From: Escherichia coli
Lineage (GTDB): Bacteria; Pseudomonadota; Gammaproteobacteria; Enterobacterales; Enterobacteriaceae
Reading direction: 5' to 3' (one strand)
Assembly: GCF_044324875.1 (NCBI RefSeq)
Contig: NZ_CP172185.1
DNA: 64,000 bases
Shown in pieces: positions 3,711 to 22,281 of this stretch. The notes under the pieces were generated by a model that was not told the DNA's origin, did not search any database, and saw nothing but the letters and a program-made list of their open reading frames with translations. How positions within the stretch are numbered: the stretch's first letter is position 1; each line of letters opens with the position of its first letter. The position numbers and the translations under genes are program-made.

Positions 3711-4871
3711 TTACTCAACAAAAATATGCGGATAAAACCGAGACATATCCTGGGTGATCAACGCACGGTCTTCACGAATGCCAATTCCGGCAGGTTGATC
3801 GTTCACCAGCCAGCTACCAATCAGCATATAGCTGTCGCCGAATTTCGGTAACGGGTGGAATTGCTGAACAATCATCCCTTCTTCGCCATACGGACCTTCC
3901 GCTGCTTCAATGGTTTTGCCGTTCTCAATGATCGACACGTTTGCGCCTTCACGGGAGAAGAGCGGTTTAACCACATATTTTTCCATTTGCGGATGATCAT
4001 CTTCCGCAAAATAAGCGGGCAGCAGGTTCGGGTGATTCGGGAACATCTCCCACAACAGCGGTAGAAGCGCTTTGTTGGAGATAATGCTCTTCCACGCCGG
4101 TTCCAGCCAGCGTACGCCTGCATCCTCCAGCTTGGTGGAGAACATCTCACGCAGCATAAATTCCCACGGATACAGCTTGAACAGGTTAGAAATCACCTGA
4201 TCTTGTAAATCCGTGAACTGACCTTTTTCGCCTAAACCGATATCGTCGATGTAGAGGAATTCAGTAGCGATTTCAGCTTCTGTCGCGCAGTCCTGCAAAT
4301 ACTGGATGGTTCCGCGATCTTCCACCGTGTCGCGACAGCAGGTGAGATGCAGCAACTGGAAGCCATACTGTTCACGCAACTCGACAAAGCGATCGATTAG
4401 CTTTTCTTGCAGACTGTTAAACTGGTCGCTGCCTTCCGGCAGGTTACCGGCGTTAAGCTGATCTTCCAGCCAGATCCACTGAAAGAATGCGGCTTCATAC
4501 AGTGACGTTGGCGTATCGGCGTTATTTTCCAGAAGTTTAGGTTCGCCAGTACCATCCCACGCCAGATCAAGACGCGAATAAAGCGATGGCTGGTGAGTCA
4601 GCCATGACTGGCGCACAAAACTCCAGGTGTGTTTTGGAATGCGGAATTTGGTCATCAGCTCATCGCTGGCGATCACTTTTTCAACCACTTTCAGGCACAT
4701 CTGGTGCAGTTCGGCGGTGACTTCTTCCAGCTTTTCAACCTGGGCGAGGGTCAACTTGTAGTAAGCATCTTCACACCAGTACGGTTCGCCGTACATGGTG
4801 TGAAAATTGAAACCGTATTCGTGGGCTTTTTCGCGCCAGTCCGGGCGCTCGGTAATACTGACTCTTTCCAT
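3711..4871 (-). CDS. ygiC: Glutathionylspermidine synthase-like ATP-grasp protein YgiC
   Basis: 386-aa ORF matching E. coli YgiC in length and sequence as recalled; follows ygiB. Confidence 0.85.
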
Positions 4872-4876
4872 CGGTA

Positions 4877-5548
4877 TCAGCCACCCATTGAACGAGAAGA
4901 GGTGCCGGTTGCGCTACGCTGCATAGTGCTTTGTTTGGCAACAGATTCACCAAAACCGCCACGAGTAACGGTGGTGGTGGTTGCCGGTTTTGGTGCCATT
5001 GCCGTCTTCGGTACGGTCATGGTGCGGCCTGGCTGGGCTGCGCCATAGTTTTTACCGGTCGCGTCGGTATATTTACCGTAAGCCGGGCTGGCCGGGTTTT
5101 TCGAGGAGAACAGCGGCTGCTGTGCAAATCCCGCGCCGCCGCCCATCAGACGACCCATCATGTAACCGGCCATCAGCGGCATCCAGAAACTCCCGCTGGA
5201 TTGCTGGGCCTGCGCCTGGTTTTCTGGTGCCATGCCAGCCTGGGCTGGTGCCTGCTGGCACTGACCTTCACCAAATTCAGCAACACAGTCTTCACGGGTG
5301 GCGTATTTCGGCGCAGTACGTTCGGCTTCTTTCAGCGCATTGTTGTACGCGGTGGTACATTCGGCGCTTTTGCCTGGGTTTGCAGCTGAACAGTCGTCAG
5401 CATTTTGATAGAGAGACACTGTTTCATCACTCTTTTCACAGCCAGCCAGCATAAAAACAGTGGCAACCGCGAGAGCGACTGGTGTCAGATGGCGTGCGCT
5501 CCAGTTTTTGCGGAACGATGCGTGGCGTATGGATTTTGTCCGTTTCAT
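4877..5548 (-). CDS. ygiB: DUF1190 lipoprotein YgiB
   Basis: ORF 4877..5581 trimmed to the internal start [12 protein letters not shown] (223 aa); lipobox LAGC; Gly/Met-rich middle region. Confidence 0.8.
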
Positions 5549-5667
5549 TTTTGTCTTCCGGGACCAGTGGTAAATACCCATCAGAATAGAGGATGGCTGG
5601 TCGAAATTGAAGCGAGAAGGGGGAAGAATGCGGCAGATAACCCGTATCTTTACGTTGCCTTACGTTT

Positions 5668-5690
5668 AGACGGGGCCGAAGCCCCGTCGT
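5668..5690 (-). terminator. Stem-loop downstream of tolC
   Basis: gacggggc-cgaa-gccccgtc hairpin just past the tolC stop, followed on the minus strand by an A/T-rich stretch. Confidence 0.45.
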
Positions 5691-5695
5691 AGTCA

Positions 5696-7177
5696 TCAGT
5701 TACGGAAAGGGTTATGACCGTTACTGGTGGTAGTGCGTGCGGATGTTTGCTGAACGACGGGTGCCGGGCTATCAGGCGCATAACCATCAGCAATAGCATT
5801 CTGTTCCGGCGTTTGCGGGGCAACGTTTTCCGGATTAGTGGAAACCGGTTTGCTCAGCGCATTGTTCAGTGCCAGCAGATCCTGCTCGTTCAACGTACCC
5901 AGGGCTGACTTAATATTCAGCTGATTAATCAGGTAGTTATAACGCGCATTCGCCAGCTCTTGCTTGGCGTTGTACAGCGTGGTGGTCGCATCCAACACAT
6001 CAACAATGGTACGCGTACCGACCGAGTAGCCCGCTTCCATCGCATCTAATGAGCTTTGAGCGGAAACTACGGCTTGTTTGTAGGCGTTAATGCTACTGAT
6101 AGAAGCATTAATGTTGTTGAAGGAGGAACGTACGGTTTGCACGACGCTACGATGGGCGCTTTCCAGTTGCTCACTGGCACCAACAAAGTTGTACTGGGCC
6201 TGTTTCACCTGCGAGTTAACCATTCCGCCCTGATAAATCGGCAGCGAGAAGCTCAGGCCAACTTTGTTCTGGCCCATATTGCTATCGTCATACTGGGTAC
6301 CAGCGGCACCTCGGGTTTTCGAACCGCTATATGAGGTGTCAGAAATCCCGGTAGAAGCCGTTAAATCCAGAGTCGGTAAGTGACCATCCTGCGCCTGGCG
6401 AATTTGCTCGCGCGCCAGGTCCTGGCTCAAGCGCGCCTGTAACAACGACAGGTTGCGTTTTTCGGCTTCTTTCAGCAGCGCGTTAACCGGCTGTGGTTTG
6501 TCGGTTTTAAAGTTTTCGACATTCAGCGCCGCCAGTTCCGGATAGTAGTTACCGGTGATCTGGCGCAGCTGCTCTACCGCGTTATCAAGGTTATTACGTG
6601 CGGTCACTTCGTTCGCCAGCACGGTATCGTACTGTGCGCGGGCGTTCTGCACGTCAGTGATCGCTACCAGGCCCACGTTAAAACGTTGGGTGGTTTGATC
6701 TAATTGACGGTAGATCGCTTCTTTTTGCGCCTGTGTATAGGAAAGAACGTCAATAGCATTCAACACGTTGAAATAAGCGGTCGCGGTGTTGAGGATCAAG
6801 GTTTGTTGATCGGTCTGATACGTGACGTCCTGAATCCCAGCTGCTTTTTCCTGCAGCGTTAACGCACGCCATTTCGACATATCAAAAATGGATTGAGTTA
6901 ACTGCAGGGACGCACTGGTCGCGTTAGAGTTGATGCCGTTCGCGTCGCGGTAGCCGTTGCTATAGGTGTAATCTGCACCTAAACCTAGCTGTGGCAGTAA
7001 TGGACTGCGCGCTTCATTAATTTTTTCAAAGGCAGCATCACGATCGGCGGCAGACTTACGCAATTCCGGGTTACTAAGGCGTGCTTGCTGATAAACTTGC
7101 ATCAGGTTCTCGGCCTGGCTCAACGAACTGAACCCAGAGAGGCTCAGGCCGATAAGAATGGGGAGCAATTTCTTCAT
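5696..7177 (-). CDS. tolC: Outer membrane efflux channel TolC
   Basis: ORF 5696..7216 trimmed to MKKLLPILIGLSLSGFSSLSQAENLMQVYQQA (493 aa); sequence is TolC along its whole length. Confidence 0.95.
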   Translation of the reverse strand: MKKLLPILIGLSLSGFSSLSQAENLMQVYQQARLSNPELRKSAADRDAAFEKINEARSPLLPQLGLGADYTYSNGYRDANGINSNATSASLQLTQSIFDMSKWRALTLQEKAAGIQDVTYQTDQQTLILNTATAYFNVLNAIDVLSYTQAQKEAIYRQLDQTTQRFNVGLVAITDVQNARAQYDTVLANEVTARNNLDNAVEQLRQITGNYYPELAALNVENFKTDKPQPVNALLKEAEKRNLSLLQARLSQDLAREQIRQAQDGHLPTLDLTASTGISDTSYSGSKTRGAAGTQYDDSNMGQNKVGLSFSLPIYQGGMVNSQVKQAQYNFVGASEQLESAHRSVVQTVRSSFNNINASISSINAYKQAVVSAQSSLDAMEAGYSVGTRTIVDVLDATTTLYNAKQELANARYNYLINQLNIKSALGTLNEQDLLALNNALSKPVSTNPENVAPQTPEQNAIADGYAPDSPAPVVQQTSARTTTSNGHNPFRN

Positions 7178-7381
7178 TTGCATTCCTTGTGGTGAAGCAG
7201 TATTTAGCGCGATCAAACTGTAAAATTATTGCGGATTCTAGCAGAAGCCGCTACCGCAAAAGGTTGGCGTTACGTGCCATAGGGCGTTAATGTGCCTCAA
7301 TTTAACACATGACTGCTCAAACGGCAGTCAAACGTCGCTGAAATTCACATTTAATTCACTATTAGTGCCAGGACATTAACA

Positions 7382-9892: not shown

Positions 9893-11788
<1,896 letters not shown>

Positions 11789-11851: not shown

Positions 11852-13993
11852 TCAAAATTCCATTTTCACCGTGAATTGCACTTCACGCGGATCGCCAATC
11901 TGATTCCCCAGATTATTTGTGGCGATGGAAGAGGTGTAATACGTTTTATCAAACAGTTTTTTGACGTTTAATTGCAGTGTGACCGGATACTGCAATTTCA
12001 TTTTGTATGCGGCGAAGGCATCGGCAACGAAATAGCCTGGCAGATAATAGTCAGCCCCATTGGTTGCCGAACGACGGCTTACGCCATGTCCACCACCGCC
12101 AAACGTCAGTGTGTTATTGCCTGGCATGTTATGAATGTCATAGGTCAGGAATAGCGAACCGGTATGACGAGGAACATTCGGCAATGGTTTCCCTGCATAA
12201 TCAGGATCTTCCAGAACCTTAGCATCGGTATAGCCGTAGCTGGCAATGATATTAATGTTTTCAGTTAATGCTCCCGCAAGGTCGACTTCTACCCCTCTTG
12301 AACGAACGCGGCCTGCCGTTTTGGCGATGGTTTCATCACCAATACTTTCGGTATACAACACGTTACGTTTATGGATATCAAACAGCGCAATATCTGCGGT
12401 TATACCATCGAACAGCTCGAATTTTGCCCCGACTTCGTAAGCATTAGATGATTCCGGTGGAAGATCTCCGATGTAGCTGGCAATTGACGATTGCGGCATA
12501 AATGTTTGCGAATAATTAGCAAATAAGGATACCGATGGCGTCAGTTTGTAGACTAACCCCAGTTTGGGCGTCCATTGTTCATCGCGGCTGTCAGTATTGA
12601 CATTAAAAGGACGGCCTTTACCCGCATACTGCGTGTAATACTGATAGCGGATCCCGGCGACGGCAATCCAGTTATCGGTCAGATAGAGCGCGTCCTGTGC
12701 ATACGCTGAGTAGCTCTCCTGTTTGATCGTCTGATCGCTGTCCGACGCCGAGACAGTTGTGCATTTGCTGGTATTGCCGTAAACAGGGTTGTAGATATTG
12801 AAATCTTTAGCGTTTTTACAGCGAATCATATCTGTGCGCAGAAGATCATAATATTCATATGACACCCCACCCAGAATCTCATTATAGAACCCAGCAATAT
12901 CAACATTCCCTTGCAGATCCGCACGAGTAGCATGCATACGCTGGGTAGATCCCTGAGTTGCATCAACACGCCGTGTCAGCGTTCCTGTCGTTGCATCATA
13001 CGCGGTAACACGAGCCTGATTATCGCCGTATTTATCCTGGCTGTAGCTGTAATCAAAGCGCGCTGTCCACTGGCTATTGAGATGATATTCTGCGTTGAGT
13101 TGCGCCAGATCGGACTGACCATCTGTAATATTAAACGGTTCGTCAAAACGTATTTTTCGATCAACGTTTACGGGCTGTTTCGTCGTAAGGTCGAAAATCG
13201 TTCCACGATCGAACGGAGTTTTATAATCCCGATGGGAATAGAGCATGGTTACTGTTGCATTATCACCAAACCAGGTGAGTGATGGGGCAATAAATGTACT
13301 GCGCTCTTTACCAAAGTTTCGCCAGTAATCTTCATCCTGCACTTCCCCGGTAAGGCGATACGCCAGTTGAGTGCCTTCAATGGGGCCAGTGATATCAAGT
13401 TGCCCGGTGCCACCACCGAAACTGGAGGACGTGGCTGAGACAGAACCATGGAATGTTTTTTCCGGGCGTTTGGTCACGACGTTAATCAATCCACCAGGAT
13501 CGAGAATGCCATACAGCGTGGAGGCCGGGCCTTTTAGCACTTCCACACGTTCTGTGGCGGCGTTGAAACTGCGAGGAAGTACAGTTCGCAGGCCGTTGGT
13601 CATGATGGAGCCATCCCGGTTAGCACCAAACCCACGACGTACAAAGGCGTCCTGAGTTCCGCCTAATGTATTGGTCTGTACCACGTTACTGACGTTATAA
13701 AGCGCTTCATCCAGCGTCGTTGCATTCTGATTTTCCAGAACCTGATCGCTAACCGTATTGACCACCTGCGGGATATCCAGCATCGGCATATCGGTTAATG
13801 TCGCCGTGGAGGTGCTCAGAGGTTGATAACCATCGGTTGCTTCAGTTGCGGTATTTGCATCTGCTGTAACAGTGATTGTTTCGCCATCTTTGGTCGTTAC
13901 AGAGTCTGTTGCATGAATCATCGGTGCCGCAAAAAGCAGTGAAAAGAGCGCCCGACCTTTGAGTCCTGAGAATGAAGGTGTGAACATAGCCAT
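11852..13993 (-). CDS. TonB-dependent outer membrane siderophore-type receptor
   Basis: 713-aa ORF with signal peptide, TonB-box-like ETITVTA near the N-terminus, plug-domain motifs and a C-terminal aromatic residue (..TVKMEF). Resembles the fit system receptor (tentative). Confidence 0.85.
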   Translation of the reverse strand: MAMFTPSFSGLKGRALFSLLFAAPMIHATDSVTTKDGETITVTADANTATEATDGYQPLSTSTATLTDMPMLDIPQVVNTVSDQVLENQNATTLDEALYNVSNVVQTNTLGGTQDAFVRRGFGANRDGSIMTNGLRTVLPRSFNAATERVEVLKGPASTLYGILDPGGLINVVTKRPEKTFHGSVSATSSSFGGGTGQLDITGPIEGTQLAYRLTGEVQDEDYWRNFGKERSTFIAPSLTWFGDNATVTMLYSHRDYKTPFDRGTIFDLTTKQPVNVDRKIRFDEPFNITDGQSDLAQLNAEYHLNSQWTARFDYSYSQDKYGDNQARVTAYDATTGTLTRRVDATQGSTQRMHATRADLQGNVDIAGFYNEILGGVSYEYYDLLRTDMIRCKNAKDFNIYNPVYGNTSKCTTVSASDSDQTIKQESYSAYAQDALYLTDNWIAVAGIRYQYYTQYAGKGRPFNVNTDSRDEQWTPKLGLVYKLTPSVSLFANYSQTFMPQSSIASYIGDLPPESSNAYEVGAKFELFDGITADIALFDIHKRNVLYTESIGDETIAKTAGRVRSRGVEVDLAGALTENINIIASYGYTDAKVLEDPDYAGKPLPNVPRHTGSLFLTYDIHNMPGNNTLTFGGGGHGVSRRSATNGADYYLPGYFVADAFAAYKMKLQYPVTLQLNVKKLFDKTYYTSSIATNNLGNQIGDPREVQFTVKMEF

Positions 13994-14093
13994 TTAGTCT
14001 GTTATCCCAAAAACTCGCGGATTGTCGCGAGTGAAAATTGTTTCTTATTGCTCACTAAGCACTATCCGTTTGTTATTTCGCCATCGGATATGT

Positions 14094-14114
14094 AATTGAG
14101 AATCATTCAATCAT
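14094..14114. promoter_or_regulatory. Candidate Fur box in the divergent receptor/ABC promoter region
   Basis: aattgagaatcattcaatcat partially matches the Fur consensus GATAATGATAATCATTATC; lies in the AT-rich 13994-14366 intergenic region. Match judged by eye only. Confidence 0.3.
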
Positions 14115-14366
14115 GCGGTAATGTAGTAGTAAATGAGAAATAACAAAAAATTGCTACATGTGTTTTTATGAGAGGTTAATGCAATTCAATTGATGGTAAT
14201 TTATTAATATTTAATGATTTTATTTTTATCTTTAAAAAAATTTCACCTGTTATTTACCTTGTTTTTGTATGGCTTTTAACTTCTTGACTACTACATTTTG
14301 TGGCGTCAAACTCTCAAAGGAGAATGAGTTTTATTTTTGTTTGTCTTTGATTAAGTTGGCGTACAC

Positions 14367-15176
14367 GTGGCACATAACGCAAAAGGGCAGGGGCTGATCC
14401 TCGACAATGTTTCTGCCGGGTATCACAAGAAAATCATTGTTGATGGTGTTTCTTTCTCCGTTCCCACAGAAAAAATGACCGTTCTGGTTGGGGCAAACGG
14501 CTGTGGAAAGTCGACGTTGCTCAGCACCATTGCACGTATCTTGCAACCTATGGGCGGCTCGATATTGCTGGATGGTAAAGCGATTCACGAGCAACCAACG
14601 AAAGCGTTATCCCGTAGACTTGGGATCTTGCCGCAGTCGCCATTATTGCCGGAGGGCTTAACCGTTTATGAACTGGTGTCGCGTGGGCGTTTTCCCTGGC
14701 AGAATTTCATTCGTCAATGGAGCGACGCCGACGAGCAGGCGGTAGAAGAGGCCCTGAAATTAACCGGTACGCAGGAGTTTGCACATTTACCTGTTGAAAA
14801 ACTTTCTGGTGGGCAGCGCCAGCGTTGCTGGATTGCGATGGTGTTGGCGCAAAAGACGCCTTATATCCTACTGGATGAACCCACAACCTGGCTTGATTTA
14901 CGTTATCAGGTTGAAATTCTTGAGTTATTACATGATTTAACGCGTCATCACGGGCGTACAGTCGTCGTGGTGTTGCATGATCTGAATTTTGCCGTCAATT
15001 ATGGTGATACGTTGATATTTTTACGCCAGGGGAAAGTGGTGCGTGTGTTGAATGAGGGGGAGCATTGCACGCCTGAGCTGGTAAAAGCTGTCTTTGACGT
15101 TGATGTTCACGCATCAATAAATCCTCTGACGGGAAAGCCGTTCTTCATGCCGTTTCGTGGTGTAGAAAAAGTATGA
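14367..15176 (+). CDS. Iron-siderophore-type ABC transporter ATP-binding protein
   Basis: 269-aa ORF (GTG start) with Walker A GANGCGKST, signature LSGGQRQR and Walker B ILLDEPTTWLD. Confidence 0.9.
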   Translation: MAHNAKGQGLILDNVSAGYHKKIIVDGVSFSVPTEKMTVLVGANGCGKSTLLSTIARILQPMGGSILLDGKAIHEQPTKALSRRLGILPQSPLLPEGLTVYELVSRGRFPWQNFIRQWSDADEQAVEEALKLTGTQEFAHLPVEKLSGGQRQRCWIAMVLAQKTPYILLDEPTTWLDLRYQVEILELLHDLTRHHGRTVVVVLHDLNFAVNYGDTLIFLRQGKVVRVLNEGEHCTPELVKAVFDVDVHASINPLTGKPFFMPFRGVEKV

Positions 15177-16156
15177 TGCGCACAGGGCTGGTTACTGTAA
15201 TTTTCCTCGCCTTACTGCTGGTGGGATGCGTGGTATATCCAGGGATTGGTGCCCGATTTATTGCACCACAAACGGTGTTGCAGGCATTTCTTCATTTTGA
15301 TCCGCAAAACTTCGATCACAACGTAATTGTAAGACTCCGTTTGCCGCGTTTAGCGGCAGCATTGCTTACCGGTGCTTCTCTTGGAGTTGCTGGTGCTTTG
15401 TTGCAGGCTGTCATTCGTAACCCATTGGGGGAGCCACATATTTTAGGCTTAAATGCCGGAGCCGCTCTTGCTGTCGTTGCTGCCAGTGCGCTTGGGCTGG
15501 CCTTTCCGGTTGGACGCCCACTGCTGGCATCTACGGGCGGCGCGTTATTGTTCCTGTTGATATTGCTGCTTTCCTCCGCAGGGCGTTCAGGGTTAACGCC
15601 AATGAAAGTTACTTTATGCGGCGTGGCGCTATCGGCGTTCGTGTCCTCAATAACGGCTGCAATCCTGATTCTTGACGAACAAACACTGCTGGCGATGCGG
15701 ACATGGCTAGCAGGTGATTTAGCGGGGCAGGATTGGGCGACGCTGGGTACGTCCGCCTGGTTTTCTCTGGGGGGATTTGTGTTAGCCCTTTACCTTGCAC
15801 CCTCCCTTAACATGTTGGCACTGGGCGATCGCATGGCGCAGGGGCTGGGCGTCTCTGTACTCCGCACGCGAACATTCACCCTGCTTGCGATCGCGTTGCT
15901 CTGTGGCGCAGCCGTATCGATTGCTGGCCCCATTGGTTTTGTCGGCCTGCTAGTACCGCAGATTGTCCGGCGTCTGGTATCAGCGGATCTGCGCGTTCTG
16001 CTCCCTCTTTCAGCTTGTGTCGGCGCGCTTTTGTTATTACTGGCAGATATTATTGCCCGGACGCTTTTCACGCCCCATGAGTTAGCGACCGGTGTCATGA
16101 CGGCGTTAGTTGGTGCGCCTGTTTTTGTCATTATGGCGACGAGGATGTTCAAATGA
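15173..16156 (+). CDS. ABC transporter permease (FecCD family)
   Basis: 327-aa polytopic membrane ORF; start overlaps the ATPase stop by 4 nt. Confidence 0.85.
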   Translation: MMRTGLVTVIFLALLLVGCVVYPGIGARFIAPQTVLQAFLHFDPQNFDHNVIVRLRLPRLAAALLTGASLGVAGALLQAVIRNPLGEPHILGLNAGAALAVVAASALGLAFPVGRPLLASTGGALLFLLILLLSSAGRSGLTPMKVTLCGVALSAFVSSITAAILILDEQTLLAMRTWLAGDLAGQDWATLGTSAWFSLGGFVLALYLAPSLNMLALGDRMAQGLGVSVLRTRTFTLLAIALLCGAAVSIAGPIGFVGLLVPQIVRRLVSADLRVLLPLSACVGALLLLLADIIARTLFTPHELATGVMTALVGAPVFVIMATRMFK

Positions 16157-17202
16157 GTCGGATAATGAACGTCGGGCTACGCCCACTACGTGTTGGTAAG
16201 TTTTCGACACTGGTACGCCCTAAAAATCTGGTGTTGCTTGGTGGGTTGTTTCTGTTTGCGGTTGGAATACTGATATTCGGTCTGATGCAGGGTTCTTTCT
16301 CCGTCCCGGCATCGGAAGTAGGACGAGCATTGTTCTCTCCAGAAAACGTAAGCACAGACGCACGTTATATTGTGCAGGATATTCGCTTGCCGAGAGTCAT
16401 CATGGCATTGCTATGCGGGGCCATGTTAGGTATGGCGGGGGCCGCGATGCAATCCATTGCGCGTAACGGCCTTGCCGATCCTGGTTTAATCGGCGTCAAA
16501 GAAGGATGTAGCGTGGCGGTGCTGTGGCTGATTTTCCAGTTTCCAATGCTGGGAATGTTCTGGCGTCCAGTGGCTGGTCTTGCTGGTGGCTTGTTGGTGG
16601 CTTTAATCGTGATTTTTTGTGCGCGCGATATTTCCCGCCCGCGATTTGTTCTGATTGGTATTGGTGTTTCCTGGTTTTTCGCCGCCGGTATCGGTGTATT
16701 TATGACCACTGCAGATGTTCGAGATGTACAAACTGCATTGATGTGGTTATCGGGAAGCCTGCATGCAGCTAACTGGATGTTAGTCGGTATTTCAGCCTGT
16801 TGGATGTTGCCAGCCGCTCTTTTATTGCTGTTCACCGCCAGGGCGGCGGATATCGCTCTGCTTGGTCATCAGGTTGCAACCGGGTTAGGGGTGAATAGTT
16901 CTCGTCTGGCGTTGTTACGTGTCGCCGCACCCATAATCCTGACAGCCGTCTGCGTTTCGTGTGTTGGTAACATCGGTTTTGTCGGATTGATAGCACCCCA
17001 TATATCACGTTTTATTCTACGTGGCGGGCAGACGACATTACTGCTGGGGAGCGCCGTATCGGGGGCGTTGTTAGTCATCCTGGCGGATAGCATTGGTCGT
17101 TTGGCTTTTTTGCCTTTGCAACTGCCTGCCGGAATCATTATTTCATTGATTGGTGGACCATTCTTTTTGCTACTGCTCTGGCAGCGCAGGAACAGTTTTT
17201 AA
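16153..17202 (+). CDS. ABC transporter permease (FecCD family), second subunit
   Basis: 349-aa polytopic membrane ORF overlapping the previous permease stop by 4 nt; paralogous to it. Confidence 0.85.
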   Translation: MSRIMNVGLRPLRVGKFSTLVRPKNLVLLGGLFLFAVGILIFGLMQGSFSVPASEVGRALFSPENVSTDARYIVQDIRLPRVIMALLCGAMLGMAGAAMQSIARNGLADPGLIGVKEGCSVAVLWLIFQFPMLGMFWRPVAGLAGGLLVALIVIFCARDISRPRFVLIGIGVSWFFAAGIGVFMTTADVRDVQTALMWLSGSLHAANWMLVGISACWMLPAALLLLFTARAADIALLGHQVATGLGVNSSRLALLRVAAPIILTAVCVSCVGNIGFVGLIAPHISRFILRGGQTTLLLGSAVSGALLVILADSIGRLAFLPLQLPAGIIISLIGGPFFLLLLWQRRNSF

Positions 17203-17212
17203 TGGGAGTTAT

Positions 17213-18160
17213 ATGCGTTTATTTTTTTCTCTGCTGATACTGTTGTCATTCTTTGCCCGCGCGACAGAACCTGTTCAGGTCTTTACTGATGATTTAGGGC
17301 GCAAAGTCACTGTTCCTGCTCATCCAAAGAGAATTGTCTCTTTACACGATCTTGATATCACTATTCCTCTGATTGAGCTCGGTGTACCTCCTGTCGCCAG
17401 CCACGGGCGAACCCGGCCTGACGGTAGCCATTTCATTCGATCAGGCGCGTTATTGACAGGTGTCGACTTTGATAATTCATCGATCGCTTTTATTGGCACC
17501 GCTGATATTGATATTGAAGCGATTGTGGCGGCAAAACCTGACCTGATCATCACAGAACCGACCCGTAATACGCCCATTGAACAACTGGAAAAAATTGCGC
17601 CCACGGTGAGCATTGATCATCTCAAAGGAGGCGCGCCAGAAATCTACCGCAAGCTGGCAGAACTTACAGGAACGCAGTCGCAGCTGGCGATACTTGAACG
17701 CCGCTATCAGGCACAAATCAATGCGCTGAAGGCGACGCTGGACAGCCAAAAAATAACGGTATCGGTGATTCAGGCAAATCAGGGAAAAATTAATGTGATG
17801 CATAGCTATCATTCGCTGGGGCGGGTATTACGCGATGCTGGTTTTCGCTTTCCGCCGCTGATTGAGAGCATTCCTGAAGGTGGGCGAATGGATGTGAGCG
17901 CAGAGCGTTTACCTGAACTGGATGCCGATTTTGTTTTTGCAACCTGGCGCGGTGACACCGGTGGTAAACCTCAGGATGAGCTGGCAGCAATGGAAAAAGT
18001 CATGCCGGGATGGTGTCAGTTTCTGACGGCCTGTCGTTCCGGGCGCTATGTGCTGATTTCTCGTGAAGAGGCGATTTCTAACTCCTTTGCATCTCTGGGG
18101 CTGATGGCTGCGCAGATACAATCACAAATTGCGGGACGACCTCTACCGGAGGCTAAATGA
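17213..18160 (+). CDS. Periplasmic substrate-binding protein (siderophore/cobalamin-type)
   Basis: ORF 17150..18160 trimmed to MRLFFSLLILLSFFARA, which has a signal peptide and an upstream gggag RBS; class III binding-protein-like sequence. Confidence 0.8.
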   Translation: MRLFFSLLILLSFFARATEPVQVFTDDLGRKVTVPAHPKRIVSLHDLDITIPLIELGVPPVASHGRTRPDGSHFIRSGALLTGVDFDNSSIAFIGTADIDIEAIVAAKPDLIITEPTRNTPIEQLEKIAPTVSIDHLKGGAPEIYRKLAELTGTQSQLAILERRYQAQINALKATLDSQKITVSVIQANQGKINVMHSYHSLGRVLRDAGFRFPPLIESIPEGGRMDVSAERLPELDADFVFATWRGDTGGKPQDELAAMEKVMPGWCQFLTACRSGRYVLISREEAISNSFASLGLMAAQIQSQIAGRPLPEAK

Positions 18161-19044
18161 TCCAGAAAGACAAAACGCGGGTTGATATTTATGGTGAGCG
18201 TTTTCGCACTCGCGCGAGTCAGTTAACGCCTGGGTTAAGAACTGTCGCAAGCTACATTAATGAGCATCGTGAAGTGGTACTCGAGCAAACGGCGATGGAA
18301 ATTGCGGCCACGTTGAACACTTCCGATGCCACAGTTATCAGGGCTATACAGGCTCTGGGGTTTGCCGGGCTGCGTGATCTGAAACGCACTCTGGAACAGT
18401 GGCTTGGTCCAGCCCTTAGTTCCAGCGAAAAGATGTCTACGACGGTGAGTAACTTGACGAGCGATGTTAACACCGCAATCGACTTTGTTCTTGAAGGGCA
18501 TTTGTATACTTGTAATGTCCTGTCAGAGCCTGAAAACCGCCACGCGCTTGCGCAAGCTGTAGCGTTGTTGGTGCAGGCACGGCAAGTCGCTATTTTTGGC
18601 ATTGGCGCTTCGGGTATCCTGGCGGACTATACCGCACGACTATTCAACCGCATAGGTTTGCCTGCCACGGCACTAAACCGTACGGGTATTGGCCTTGCCG
18701 AGCAACTGATCGCGCTTCAACGTGGCGATGTTCTGATCATGATGGCGCAAAAATCTGCGCACCGGGAAGGGCTGACAACGCTTCGTGAGGCGAGGCGGCT
18801 GGGGATCCCTGTTATTTTGCTGACAAACGCGCTGGATTCACGTTTTAGCAAAGACGCCAGTATCGTGATTCATGTTCCGCGCGGGGATGAAAAGGGGAAA
18901 ACGCCACTACATGGTACGGTATTGTTGTGCCTGGAAATGATTGTTTGGTCGGTGGCTTCCGCGATGCCGCAGCGTGCGGTTAAAACCATTAAGCGAATTA
19001 ACGATTTCCATCGGGGTTTGAAAACGGGAAGAAAGAATGGCTAA
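18157..19044 (+). CDS. RpiR/MurR-family transcriptional regulator (HTH plus SIS domain)
   Basis: 295-aa ORF overlapping the binding-protein stop by 4 nt; N-terminal helix-turn-helix region and C-terminal SIS-like Rossmann segment (VAIFGIGASGILADY). Confidence 0.75.
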   Translation: MIQKDKTRVDIYGERFRTRASQLTPGLRTVASYINEHREVVLEQTAMEIAATLNTSDATVIRAIQALGFAGLRDLKRTLEQWLGPALSSSEKMSTTVSNLTSDVNTAIDFVLEGHLYTCNVLSEPENRHALAQAVALLVQARQVAIFGIGASGILADYTARLFNRIGLPATALNRTGIGLAEQLIALQRGDVLIMMAQKSAHREGLTTLREARRLGIPVILLTNALDSRFSKDASIVIHVPRGDEKGKTPLHGTVLLCLEMIVWSVASAMPQRAVKTIKRINDFHRGLKTGRKNG

Positions 19045-19088: not shown

Positions 19089-19403
19089 TTAAATCCCCGG
19101 TTGCAGAATACGGATATTCATCTCCAGCACGTCGCCTTTTACGGCTTCGCTGTACGCCTTCATGTGCGGGGTTTGCAGATGCGCTTCAAGATGCGCGATG
19201 CTTTCCCACTGCTCAATCATCACGATAGAATCCGGTGCCATAGACTGGAAACTCACGCCAGCAGCGCAATCCACCATTGGCGCATAGCCGTGGCAACCTT
19301 CTTCTTTCAGTACGGTTGGAACGATTTTAGCAAACTGATCCAATACCGCCTGACGGTGATGTTGACCAGGACGAGTACGGATTTCTGCGATTACGGTAAG
19401 CAT
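19089..19403 (-). CDS. ygiN: Quinol monooxygenase YgiN
   Basis: 104-aa ORF; antibiotic-biosynthesis-monooxygenase-like sequence; conserved partner downstream of mdaB. Confidence 0.9.
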   Translation of the reverse strand: MLTVIAEIRTRPGQHHRQAVLDQFAKIVPTVLKEEGCHGYAPMVDCAAGVSFQSMAPDSIVMIEQWESIAHLEAHLQTPHMKAYSEAVKGDVLEMNIRILQPGI

Positions 19404-19433: not shown

Positions 19434-20015
19434 TTAACCAAAAATTTCCACAAGATGCTTGCGATATTCTTCAGTATAGCGGGGAACATCAGGCATTTTT
19501 ATCACGTCATTAGCGATAAATGTCGGCAGCGGTTCCATGCCAAGGAATTGGTTTGCTTTATGGAACGGCAGATACACACCGTCAACGCCAACGCCGTGGA
19601 AGAACTGATCTTTTTCGGTGAAGGCTTCCATTGGTGCGTTCCAGGTCAGAGAAAGCATATATTTTTTGCCCTGTACCAGGCCGCCGGAACCGTATTTTTT
19701 CGACGGATCTTTGCGGGTACGACCATCGCTGGCATACAGCGTCCCGTGACCTTCGGTGAATACATCATCAATGTATTTTTTCACTGTCCACGGCGCGCCC
19801 ATCCACCAGCCTGGCATCTGCCAAATCACCACATCAGCCCAGAGAAAGTTTTGTACTTCCGCTTTGACATCGTAGTCGCTGTCGGCGCGAACGATGCGGA
19901 CATCATGCCCGAGGTCGCGCAGTGTGCCATCCGCGACTTCGGTCAGGGTGTCGTTCAGTTGACCATTGGAGTGGGCGAATTTTTTCGCGCCGTTGATAAT
20001 TAGGATGTTGCTCAT
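19434..20015 (-). CDS. mdaB: NADPH:quinone oxidoreductase MdaB
   Basis: 193-aa ORF beginning MSNILIINGAKKFAHSNGQLN; flavodoxin-like fold protein. Confidence 0.9.
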   Translation of the reverse strand: MSNILIINGAKKFAHSNGQLNDTLTEVADGTLRDLGHDVRIVRADSDYDVKAEVQNFLWADVVIWQMPGWWMGAPWTVKKYIDDVFTEGHGTLYASDGRTRKDPSKKYGSGGLVQGKKYMLSLTWNAPMEAFTEKDQFFHGVGVDGVYLPFHKANQFLGMEPLPTFIANDVIKMPDVPRYTEEYRKHLVEIFG

Positions 20016-20075
20016 TTTTTAACCTCAAGGTGAGACGTTTGTCGACTATAGTACGTCACAGAGCGGTACGGTGAA

Positions 20076-20118
20076 ATTAGCAAAATGTGCAAAGTCTTTT
20101 GCTAATTTAGCAAAAGTC
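20076..20118. promoter_or_regulatory. Inverted/direct repeat element in the mdaB upstream / qseC downstream spacer
   Basis: attagcaaaa ... ttttgctaat inverted repeat with an additional ttagcaaaagtc copy; may be an mdaB operator and/or qseC terminator. Confidence 0.3.
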
Positions 20119-20124
20119 TTACCC

Positions 20125-21474
20125 TTACCAGCTCACCTTCGCCTCAAATCCACGTTGTTCCGCATTCCCAAACTCAACATTCATGCCATGCAATTTGGCG
20201 ATTCGCTGGACAATCGATAGCCCAAGTCCACTGCCGGTAGCGGTTTGTCCGGGTGGGCGATAGAAGCGTTCGCCAATTCTCGCCAGTGCCTCTGGCGTCA
20301 CACCGGGGCCGTTATCCCTCACGATGAAACTATCGGCATTCAGCGTGACGTCCACCACGCTGCCCTGTGGACTGTAGCGCACGGCGTTATCCAGAAGGTT
20401 TCGTACCAACAAACTTAGCAACAGCGGTTGTCCGGTGCGTTTGATGCCGTGGGCATTGAGTGTCAGTCGCACGTCAATTTTCGCCTGCTGCGCCGTGTGG
20501 TAAATATCCATCACCGATGATTGCAGGAGATCTTCAAGCGGGATCTCCGCGACGTCCTGAAGGTTATCCAGTGAGTCCAGCCGCGATAGCGTGAGCAGTT
20601 GATCAACCAGACGAGTAGCACGATCGATTCCGGAATGTAATTGAAGCAGCGCTTTTTTCCGCGCCTGCGGATCATCGTCAGAGAGCTGCGCAACTTCGGT
20701 TTGCACTTTCAGCGCCGTTAACGGGCTACGAAGTTCGTGAGCTGCGTCGGAGGTAAAGCGTCGTTCTCGAACCATCATCGCATGTGTGCGGGCGAACAGT
20801 TGATTCAACGACTCAACCAGTGGACGCACTTCGCTGGGTACGCCCGTCGCGTTTAGTGGTTTTTCCGAGTCAGGGTCACGCATACGTAGTGCCAGCGCCA
20901 GTTTGTTCAGCGGCGCGAGTTCACGACCCAGTAGTACCATCATGATGATTAACATAATCGGCAGTGCGACAAGCCACGGGATCAATTGCCCTGCAACAAT
21001 CGCCAGCGCCATGTCTTCGCGGTATTCCCATTCCTGACCAACAACGATGCGATATTTGCCATCAGGTGAGGTCATCCAGACAAAACGCCAGGGATCGTCT
21101 TCACCGACCAGTTGCCCGTCAGCAAAACCTTCCCGTTGATAGCTATAGGGAATATCTTCTCCGTTATCGCCATCGTTAAGGACCATTCTGCCGTCGTGGG
21201 TAAAGATGGCAAAGGTTAGCGCATCGTCATCAACATGACCGTGTTTTAATTTATTTGGCGTCTGTGCCATGCGATCTGCCGCGTTGATTTCGTTGAGATC
21301 GAGCGTACTTAACCGCTTGGCAAACAGCATCAGTTGGGTGTCGAACAACTCATCGACGTTATCCGTTGTTTGTTTCCAGGCGACAAAGCTGGAAAGCAGC
21401 CAGGTCACTGAGGCCAGAATTAAAAAGATTAGCGTCAGCCTGACTCGCAGACTAAGACGTTGGGTAAATTTCAT
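20125..21474 (-). CDS. qseC: Sensor histidine kinase QseC
   Basis: 449-aa ORF with two transmembrane segments, H-box ([12 protein letters not shown]) and ATPase motifs; overlaps the qseB stop. Confidence 0.95.
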
Positions 21475-22130
21475 TTCTCACCTAATGTGTAGCCAATACC
21501 ATGAACGGTACGAATAAAATCACTGCCGAGTTTGCGTCGCAGATGATGCACATGCACTTCAACGGCATTACTGGTGACCTCTTCGTCCCAGGTATACAGT
21601 TTCTCTTCAATCAGTTTGCGCGGCAGTACCCGACCAGCGTTACGCATCAGTAATTCCAGCAGGGCAAATTCTTTTGGTTTCAGAGTTAAGGGTTCGCCAG
21701 CCAGCGTGGCGATACGTTTGCCGGGGTCGAGCATGACGTTACCGTGGCGCAGTTCGTTGCTGGCCTGGCCGTTGGTTCGGCGCATCAGAGCTTCCAGCCT
21801 GGCGGCGACTTCTATCAACGCAAAAGGTTTACACAGATAATCGTCAGCTCCCAGACGCAGCCCCTCTACACGTTCCGCTAACGCATCGCGCGCGGTCAGG
21901 ATCAGTACCGGCTCACGCTGACCTTTTTCTCGCCATTCGCGCAAAATATCGCGACCATCCATGCCTGGTAAGGTTAAATCCAGGATCACCGCATCATAAG
22001 GCGCACTATATAGCGCCTCTTTTCCCTGACGACCTTGTGTAAACCAGTCGACGCTAAAACCCATTTTACTAAGGCCCGTTTTGATGCCGTCGCCAATCAG
22101 CATGTCATCTTCTATCAGTAAAATTCGCAT
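21471..22130 (-). CDS. qseB: Response regulator QseB (OmpR family)
   Basis: 219-aa ORF with receiver domain (MRILLIEDD...) and winged-helix C-terminus. Confidence 0.95.
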
Positions 22131-22281
22131 TTTTTCATCCCTGCGATAACCGTATTTGCTGCCAGTAAACCGTGTTGTAACGAGCTCTGTACAGCATTAA
22201 ATTTTATTTTTTTCCCTTAAGAAGTTGTTAAGGACTATCTTGTTAAATGCTCGGAAACAGACATTAAAGGGAGTAATAAAC

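Follow-up and report, generated by a model that had tools for sequence, protein, structure and literature searches.

The short qseC-mdaB spacer of some Escherichia coli strains is probably the ancestral mdaB promoter region and not a product of ygiZ loss

Introduction

In Escherichia coli K-12 MG1655 the interval between qseC and mdaB measures 696 bp and contains ygiZ (b3027), which encodes a protein of 110 amino acids. In the stretch of E. coli DNA analyzed here (64,000 nt of contig NZ_CP172185.1, assembly GCF_044324875.1, referred to as the window) the same two genes are only 109 bp apart. Does this short spacer mark the loss of ygiZ, and what are the repeats that it carries? A sequence-only reading of the window had described ygiZ as absent from its K-12 position, and had offered the inverted repeat in the spacer as either an operator of mdaB or the terminator of qseC. 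The history of the locus and the anatomy of the spacer were analyzed by genome comparison.

Materials and methods

Allele counts were obtained from searches of 5,426 complete E. coli genomes. The polarity of the alleles was assessed in a scan for MdaB with one genome per species, comprising 80 Enterobacteriaceae loci. For phylogenetic footprinting, the last 115 nt before mdaB were aligned for the window and the 80 species (81 sequences). Repeats were evaluated against 5,000 dinucleotide-preserving shuffles of the 109-bp spacer.

Results and Discussion

Layout of the locus

The genes of interest are read from the minus strand of the window in the order qseB, qseC, spacer, mdaB and ygiN. qseB (21471-22130) was assigned from the ORF list and the sequence. 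qseC (20125-21474) is an ORF of 449 codons ending with TAA at 20127->20125 and is annotated as qseC in the closest complete genome. The spacer occupies 20016-20124. It is followed by mdaB (19434-20015, ATG at 20015), encoding an NADPH:quinone oxidoreductase, and by ygiN (19089-19403), both recognized as ORFs and by the annotation of the closest complete genome, which shows the same arrangement (99.9% identity over 751 bp). No relative of YgiZ, Hcp or the 236-aa protein described below was found by tblastn of the 64-kb window (all E > 0.01). The absence of ygiZ between mdaB and qseC was thus confirmed, as was its position in K-12, and K-12 does not share the short spacer.

Three-way alignment with K-12-type and ST131 alleles placed the difference in a 7-nt variable linker (20118-20124) between the qseC stop codon and a conserved palindrome. 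The sequence of the linker differs between genera in the 81-sequence alignment. It is the empty site at which other strains carry either an hcp-X-ygiZ cassette or a lone ygiZ, and ygiZ is missing in the window because this strain has the empty form of the insertion site. The spacer itself is ordinary, namely the normal, ancestral promoter region of mdaB.

A second variable region lies on the other side of ygiN. An iron-uptake block (11852-19044) is located between parE (9896-11788) and ygiN and encodes a TonB-dependent siderophore receptor, an ABC ATPase, two FecCD permeases, a substrate-binding protein and a MurR/RpiR regulator. The closest genome, O157:H7 and ST131 have this block; K-12 and IAI39 do not, and parE and ygiN are direct neighbors there. 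The block occurs irrespective of the allele found between mdaB and qseC.

Alleles and their polarity

Three alleles were distinguished among the complete E. coli genomes. The short allele, with the 109-bp spacer of the window, was present in 824 genomes, including every O157:H7 genome among the matches listed. The K-12-type allele has 587 extra bp with ygiZ and accounts for about 3,340 genomes (4,600 with ygiZ minus 1,262 with hcp). The long allele of about 1.83 kb carries hcp (tssD), a hypothetical gene of 236 codons and ygiZ, and was found in 1,262 genomes, including ST131 and IAI39; the same 1,262 genomes account for hcp and the 236-aa gene, and ygiZ as such is present in 4,600 of the 5,426 genomes (85%). 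Both ends of the K-12 allele match the long allele at 94% identity, and 131 unrelated nt stand in place of the central 1,261 nt of the long allele, the part with hcp and the 236-aa gene. The K-12 allele is therefore what remains of the cassette after decay.

In 76 of the 80 Enterobacteriaceae species, among them E. albertii, an Escherichia cryptic-clade genome, Citrobacter, Salmonella, Klebsiella, Enterobacter, Kluyvera and Leclercia, the distance from the end of qseC to mdaB is 102-110 bp. An interval of 106 bp between qseC (preB) and mdaB was reported for S. Typhimurium (PMC2653508). The four exceptions are the sister species E. whittamii with a ygiZ-only allele, Citrobacter werkmanii and one Pseudocitrobacter genome with the full trio of genes at the identical site, and one genome with a 144-bp spacer. 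Given this length in nearly all of the 80 species and the short form in 824 E. coli genomes, the short form is ancestral. Measured against the outgroups it does not behave as a derived allele, and it is the inserted DNA that is foreign in base composition (34-38% G+C vs 50-53% in the flanking genes).

The junctions of the island also carry a record of insertion. In E. coli the island begins directly after the qseC stop codon, and on the mdaB side it ends with GGTGAG-TCAGAGTAAGATCAGAC, a second, damaged copy of the 3' end of qseC and the linker. The corresponding sequence in Escherichia sp. MOD1-EC7003 is GGTGAGCTGGTCAGAGTAAGAC, and TCAGAGTAAGATCAGAC lacks the CTGG. This second copy indicates that the insertion duplicated about 13 bp of its target. 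Short E. coli alleles retain the undamaged ancestral linker and are therefore not excision products of the present-day islands. In MOD1-EC7003 (locus positions 3880-3900) the qseC stop codon TAA reads TCA, and the ORF would extend by two codons to the TAA of GAGTAAGAC. The damaged copy beside the K-12 island carries a MOD1-EC7003-like TCAGAGTAAGA version of the qseC end.

The absence of ygiZ had been worded in a way that implied a loss, and a precise deletion of ygiZ or of the full cassette from an ancestor, with the repeats left over, is the obvious alternative. It could draw on the large majority of complete E. coli genomes that carry ygiZ, on the ygiZ-only allele of E. whittamii, and on the imperfect direct repeat of the qseC 3' end that brackets the island and could in principle mediate excision. 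Recombination between these direct repeats would, however, leave TCAGAGTAAGATCAGAC without CTGG and disrupt the end of qseC, whereas the linker in the window is intact, and both the length and the layout of the spacer are those of 76 of the 80 species. Island-bearing strains also have all of the repeats: K-12-type and ST131 genomes carry the sequence from the mdaB ATG to about 20118 nearly unchanged ahead of mdaB. As K-12 shares this sequence, the repeats are no deletion scar, and the suggested pairwise comparison with K-12 did not support a tie between repeats, short spacer and ygiZ loss. An empty allele could have been re-acquired by homologous recombination, but its sequence would still be ancestral in type. 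Secondary loss is consequently a highly improbable reading, already largely refuted, and the direction of change implied by the word absent was the wrong one: ygiZ arrived with the inserted cassette. We conclude that the 109-bp spacer is very probably the intact ancestral qseC-mdaB region of the Enterobacteriaceae, including the mdaB promoter, which never received the ygiZ cassette.

The age of the insertion is a separate matter. Identity to the E. coli proteins is 76% for Hcp vs 77% for QseC in C. werkmanii, and 68.5% vs 68% in Pseudocitrobacter. Since the cassette occupies the same site in these two genomes and has diverged to a similar degree as qseC, an old insertion followed by repeated loss is a conceivable if less likely history. 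The occurrence of the cassette at one site in three genera may reflect either an old presence/absence polymorphism kept by recombination or repeated targeting of the site beside the palindrome. No conserved cassette ends or att-like repeats were found across six contexts.

The situation resembles the strain-specific islands known from comparisons of K-12 with O157:H7. The 587-bp K-12 segment with ygiZ is missing from both O157:H7 and the window, and the flanking backbone genes are identical. The difference is that a polarity can be assigned here, with the K-12 segment as a decayed insertion and the O157 type as the ancestral state.

The cassette

The AT-rich cassette of 1.7 kb directly follows the qseC stop codon and consists of hcp, the 236-aa gene and ygiZ (DUF2645). 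The gene at its head encodes an Hcp/TssD protein (PF05638, E = 3.5e-20; TIGR03344, 198.8 bits) and the next gene a putative enzyme of toxin type. The small DUF2645 gene is inherited together with the putative toxin gene, following it directly in six of six contexts. Searches of Pfam, NCBIfam and PDB gave no sequence match for the 236-aa protein. Fold comparison, the only informative search, showed a lysozyme-like protein of the GH23 fold. Homologues of the protein are confined to Enterobacterales, and their alignment contains invariant WIES, GS..Q and YNRG motifs.

The gene order Hcp, a protein of 236-240 aa and a DUF2645 protein recurs in a Chania island, on a conjugative plasmid of Serratia and, in Pectobacterium, between pagP and a transporter gene. 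The trio is a mobile unit. On the Serratia plasmid CP072744.1 the trio is located at locus positions 4507-6058, with a middle protein of 240 aa. The replicon carries traI and traX, and the cassette is therefore able to travel on conjugative plasmids.

YgiZ has hydrophobic segments compatible with about three membrane spans and is listed as an inner membrane protein (PMC3950696). The literature searched contained no paper on DUF2645 and none linking hcp with mdaB and qseC. Hcp is a tube protein; the lysozyme-like 236-aa protein, a putative peptidoglycan-cleaving enzyme, is probably an effector of type VI secretion, with YgiZ as the probable immunity partner. An orphan Hcp-effector-immunity cassette, of which K-12 would have kept only the immunity gene, is the most economical reading of these data. 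Orphan Hcp-effector-immunity islets and peptidoglycan glycoside hydrolase effectors such as Tse3/Tsi3 are the closest systems for comparison. Unlike these, the middle protein of the cassette lacks a Pfam or NCBIfam match. Tsi3 is a periplasmic/lipoprotein immunity protein, whereas the putative immunity protein YgiZ is a polytopic membrane protein.

Repeats in the spacer

The repeats had been reported as attagcaaaa (20076-20085), ttttgctaat (20097-20106) and a second ttagcaaaa (20107-20115). All three were located at these positions, and a repeat search extended them to a perfect 12-nt inverted repeat (20074-20085/20097-20108), a 14-nt inverted repeat of 93% (20092-20105/20107-20120) and a 12-nt direct repeat (20074-20085/20104-20115). 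These repeats exceed chance. In the shuffled spacers the frequency was 0.0004 for perfect inverted repeats of 12 nt or longer and 0.016 for direct repeats of 9 nt or longer.

The perfection of the 12-nt inverted repeat hinges on a single lineage-specific nucleotide. Position 20103 is T in the window and in its nearest relative, WP8-S18-ESBL-07, and G in K-12, O157:H7, IAI39 and E. albertii. The T takes the perfect palindrome from TTTTGC/GCAAAA to TTTTGCTAA/TTAGCAAAA and the hairpin from -7.9 to -10.0 kcal/mol. The repeated word TTTTGCTAA is found in the promoter-proximal half of a marbox-like site and in both arms of the palindrome, and within the Escherichia lineage this likeness is coincidental.

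Promoter anatomy

The footprint of the 81 sequences resolved the spacer into a series of constrained elements. An invariant block, ATTATTGC-N7-GCAAAAGACTTTGCACATTTTGC, is followed by a conserved TAnnAT 19-20 nt past the marbox-like site. In the direction of mdaB, the full order is a near-invariant ATTATTGC-N7-GCAAAAGACTTTGCACATTTTGCTnATTT, 19-20 variable nt, G-TAnnAT, CAAAC and GAGG. Information content in bits per column was 1.83 for the left arm of the palindrome, 0.37 for its 7-nt centre, 1.92 for its right arm, 1.79 for the 20-nt marbox block and 1.34 for the -10 hexamer. For comparison, the first and second codon positions of mdaB gave 1.82 and the third positions 1.14. With 1.8-1.9 bits for the arms and the marbox block against 1.82, the constraint on these elements therefore equals that on the protein-coding positions of mdaB.

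The predicted -10 hexamer is TACTAT (20053->20048, minus strand), in agreement with the family pattern G-TAnnAT, in which T78 of the alignment never varies and at least 90% of the sequences share A79, A82 and T83. Its spacing from the marbox-like site is constant at 19-20 nt. Transcription is predicted to start 7 nt after the -10 hexamer, at position 20040 on the minus strand, the A of the conserved CAAAC (A91, invariant). The Shine-Dalgarno sequence GAGG of mdaB is located at 20023-20026 of the same strand, and at least 90% of the sequences share its A106, G107 and G108. A simple sigma-70 promoter scan of 19900-20300 called nothing. The scan passed over TACTAT because the hexamer is not accompanied by a -35 match, as expected for a class II promoter. 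An Rfam search of 19800-20400 at a permissive threshold gave no RNA family. Primer extension on mdaB of Salmonella was attempted without success (PMC2653508). On inspection by eye, TTGCAC...TTGC has the wrong spacing for a sigma-54 promoter, and this reading was discarded.

The marbox-like site

The sequence TTTGCACATTTTGCTAATTT (20093->20074, minus strand, forward with respect to mdaB) overlaps the -35 region and is proposed as a MarA/SoxS/Rob site. Of the 14 positions specified in AYnGCACnnWnnRYYAAAYn, 12 match, and there is a single mismatch against GCAnnWWnTGnnAAA, the 15-mer consensus of PMC12052159. A consensus scan of the 64-kb window, of the kind the earlier reading had called for, did recover this site, but the 13 matches obtained vs 16.8 expected mean that a match alone is not significant. 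The scan also recovered ATGGCACGTAACGCCAACC at 7262-7280 (minus strand) with one mismatch, which served as a positive control and which we take to be the known tolC marbox. This site is located about 45 nt upstream of the tolC ORF (5696-7216, minus strand).

Conservation and geometry set the mdaB site apart from a chance match. The block 20074-20093, at its mean of 1.79 bits, is near-invariant over the 81 sequences. It reads forward and stops 20 nt short of the conserved TAnnAT, with its centre at about -43 from the predicted start. Class II promoters are defined by a forward marbox between -36 and -55 (PMC12052159). Assignment to this class rests, for the consensus match, on the near-invariance across the 81 sequences and, for orientation and position, on a start that is predicted and not mapped. 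The same 15-mer is listed as the predicted mdaB marbox of K-12 (PMC12052159, S2 Table). The K-12 starts beside it, about 56-59 and 104-107 nt upstream of the ATG, are approximate owing to conversion between genome-version coordinates. One of these listed starts places the K-12 marbox at -26. The listed starts do not coincide with position 20040, but as they are only those nearest each predicted marbox they are no test of a start at that position.

Membership of mdaB in the mar regulon, mentioned in the sequence-only reading, has been described for E. coli (PMC2989944, PMC6561319, bioRxiv 10.1101/2020.04.27.065417). In Salmonella, deletion of ramA lowered mdaB expression 3.2-fold and ygiN expression 2.3-fold (PMC3139621). 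mdaB is not mentioned in a MarA ChIP-seq study (PMC5684230) or in a Salmonella ChIP-seq supplement. From conservation, class II geometry and the literature, we infer that the marbox is functional and that an activator binds it and activates mdaB. Like the class II promoters fumC, micF, inaA and lpxC P2, the mdaB promoter has an asymmetric 20-bp forward marbox overlapping -35 and placed 19-20 nt from the -10, has no recognizable -35 hexamer and drives a gene that has been reported as part of the mar/sox/rob regulon (RamA in Salmonella). It differs from them in the strongly conserved palindrome directly upstream, and in that its start is only predicted. The proposal that the repeat is an mdaB operator is supported for one copy, 20074-20085, the promoter-proximal half of this conserved and class II-placed site; as a consensus match alone it does not stand.

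The three TTTTGCTAA copies could instead represent three Mar/Sox/Rob half-sites or extra marboxes, making the whole block a multi-site activator array. The left arm of the palindrome in Escherichia (CTTTTGCTAAATT) does equal the 3' half of the marbox (ATTTTGCTAATTT) at 11 of 13 positions, and GCTAAATTCGCAAAA is listed as a second predicted marbox at K-12 mdaB (PMC12052159, S2 Table). Against this, the GCAC element at the required distance is missing from both arms, and in Tenebrionibacter and Shimwellia the palindrome survives next to a decayed marbox. The centre of the palindrome is unconserved outside Escherichia, so the TAA part of the repeated word is lineage-specific. An activator array is thus very unlikely, and a single marbox-like site beside a separate palindrome is the preferred arrangement.

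The palindrome: operator or terminator

The palindrome (20094-20117, minus strand) has the core TTGC-N7-GCAA at 20099-20113, and its centre at 20106 is about -66 from the predicted start. The family consensus is ATTATTGC-N7-GCAAAAGAC and the version in the window GACTTTTGC-TAAATTA-GCAAAAGAC. As RNA, an extended form of the palindrome (20090-20122, minus strand) can fold into a hairpin, and the inverted repeat could accordingly be primarily an intrinsic terminator of qseBC, conserved to stop read-through into mdaB. The position of the hairpin, 3-35 nt past the qseC stop codon and before a U-rich stretch, fits such a role, as do its folding energy of -11.2 kcal/mol (z = -3.26) here and -11.1 kcal/mol in Salmonella, in which preB and mdaB are not co-transcribed (PMC2653508). 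The median over the 81 species is, however, -4.7 kcal/mol. The stem is AU-rich with only 2-3 G-C pairs instead of a G+C-rich stem, and the tail UGCACAUUUU is an interrupted U tract; a terminator scan of 19900-20300 gave no match, as expected for an AU-rich hairpin. The arms are conserved by sequence and not by pairing. The four core pairs are the same throughout, the inner ones form in 40-52% of the sequences, most genera have a mismatch in the stem, and covariation is scarce. Furthermore, in the K-12-type allele the palindrome is 590 bp away from qseC, which has its own hairpin of -18 kcal/mol there.

This K-12 hairpin (locus positions 2468-2512; -18.1 kcal/mol, z = -6.5) is located between the convergent stop codons of qseC and ygiZ and resembles a bidirectional terminator brought by the island. 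The C. werkmanii version of the cassette lacks it, and the stop codons of qseC and ygiZ are about 10 nt apart in that genome.

The palindrome is not tied to the 3' end of qseC either. Shimwellia, Tenebrionibacter and a related metagenome bin have no qseC ahead of mdaB and still retain TTGC-N7-GCAA there. The upstream neighbor of mdaB is a dehydrogenase gene in Shimwellia and a divergent parC in Tenebrionibacter and the metagenome bin. In these three taxa the palindrome sits at -99/-96 relative to the ATG, its distance to the -10 sequence TAAAAT is exactly 49 nt, and the marbox is decayed. The palindrome is the more conserved of the two elements. Since it stays with mdaB at a fixed spacing from the -10 when qseC is missing, the palindrome is therefore a regulatory site of mdaB, phase-locked to the core promoter, and we propose that it serves a dimeric regulator. 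A primary terminator function is unlikely, and the qseC terminator of the earlier reading was largely mistaken. At most, the hairpin may play a weak, secondary part in qseC termination in Escherichia and Salmonella, in which the left arm is extended.

In Tenebrionibacter and the related metagenome bin (2302-2500 of the loci), mdaB-ygiN is located directly between parC and parE. The ygiV-ygiW-qseBC block is missing there, and this block may therefore itself have been inserted upstream of the mdaB palindrome in the core Enterobacteriaceae.

Recognition sites of LysR-type regulators are interrupted dyads of the form T-N11-A centered near -65. The palindrome has a T-N11-A dyad with two 4-bp half-sites, the centres of which are 11 bp apart, and it is centered at nearly the same distance in a fixed phase with the core promoter. 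This likeness is geometric only, and other dimeric helix-turn-helix families fit equally well. The literature gave no regulator that could be assigned to the palindrome, and in Acinetobacter and a Neisseriaceae genome the region upstream of mdaB lacked it. The spacer contains no direct repeat of the QseB/PmrA type, such as CTTAAGaagttGTTAAG in the ygiW-qseB region. In the ygiW-qseB intergenic region the direct repeat CTTAAG-aagtt-GTTAAG (22216-22232) has, by eye, the form of a PmrA/QseB-type box.

Implications

The anatomy of the spacer suggests a simple arrangement in which mdaB-ygiN would have its own class II promoter of the Mar/Sox/Rob type. The proposed order is the qseC stop codon, the 7-nt linker, the palindrome at about -66, the marbox at about -43, TACTAT and a leader of about 25 nt with GAGG. 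MarA, SoxS or Rob bound to the marbox would stand in for the -35 element and recruit RNA polymerase, and a second, dimeric regulator would occupy the palindrome one step farther upstream.

For comparisons between E. coli strains, it is of importance that K-12 represents the derived state at this locus, and absence relative to K-12 should not be taken as loss. The absence of ygiZ is a common polymorphism, seen in 15% of the complete E. coli genomes, with O157:H7 genomes among the matches listed. What needs explaining is the presence of ygiZ in K-12 and not its absence in the strain of the window.

Two modest leads follow, partly from outside the window: the palindrome, and ygiZ as an orphan immunity gene. 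The joint reading, in which ATTATTGC-N7-GCAAAAG is a family-wide operator of mdaB-ygiN and ygiZ of K-12 is an orphan immunity gene against a GH23-like type VI effector not classified before, is put forward tentatively, as a real possibility more than as an expectation. If true, the regulator acting at the palindrome would be a possible route by which QseB/PreA overexpression or quinone stress reaches mdaB. In any case mdaB-ygiN has a second family-conserved cis-element, a small but clean target, and ygiZ, a gene of unknown function in K-12, gains a testable immunity hypothesis that predicts differences in inter-strain killing between the three alleles. For strains with the short allele, such as that of the window and O157:H7, the prediction would then be sensitivity to attack by cassette-bearing strains of B2 and F.
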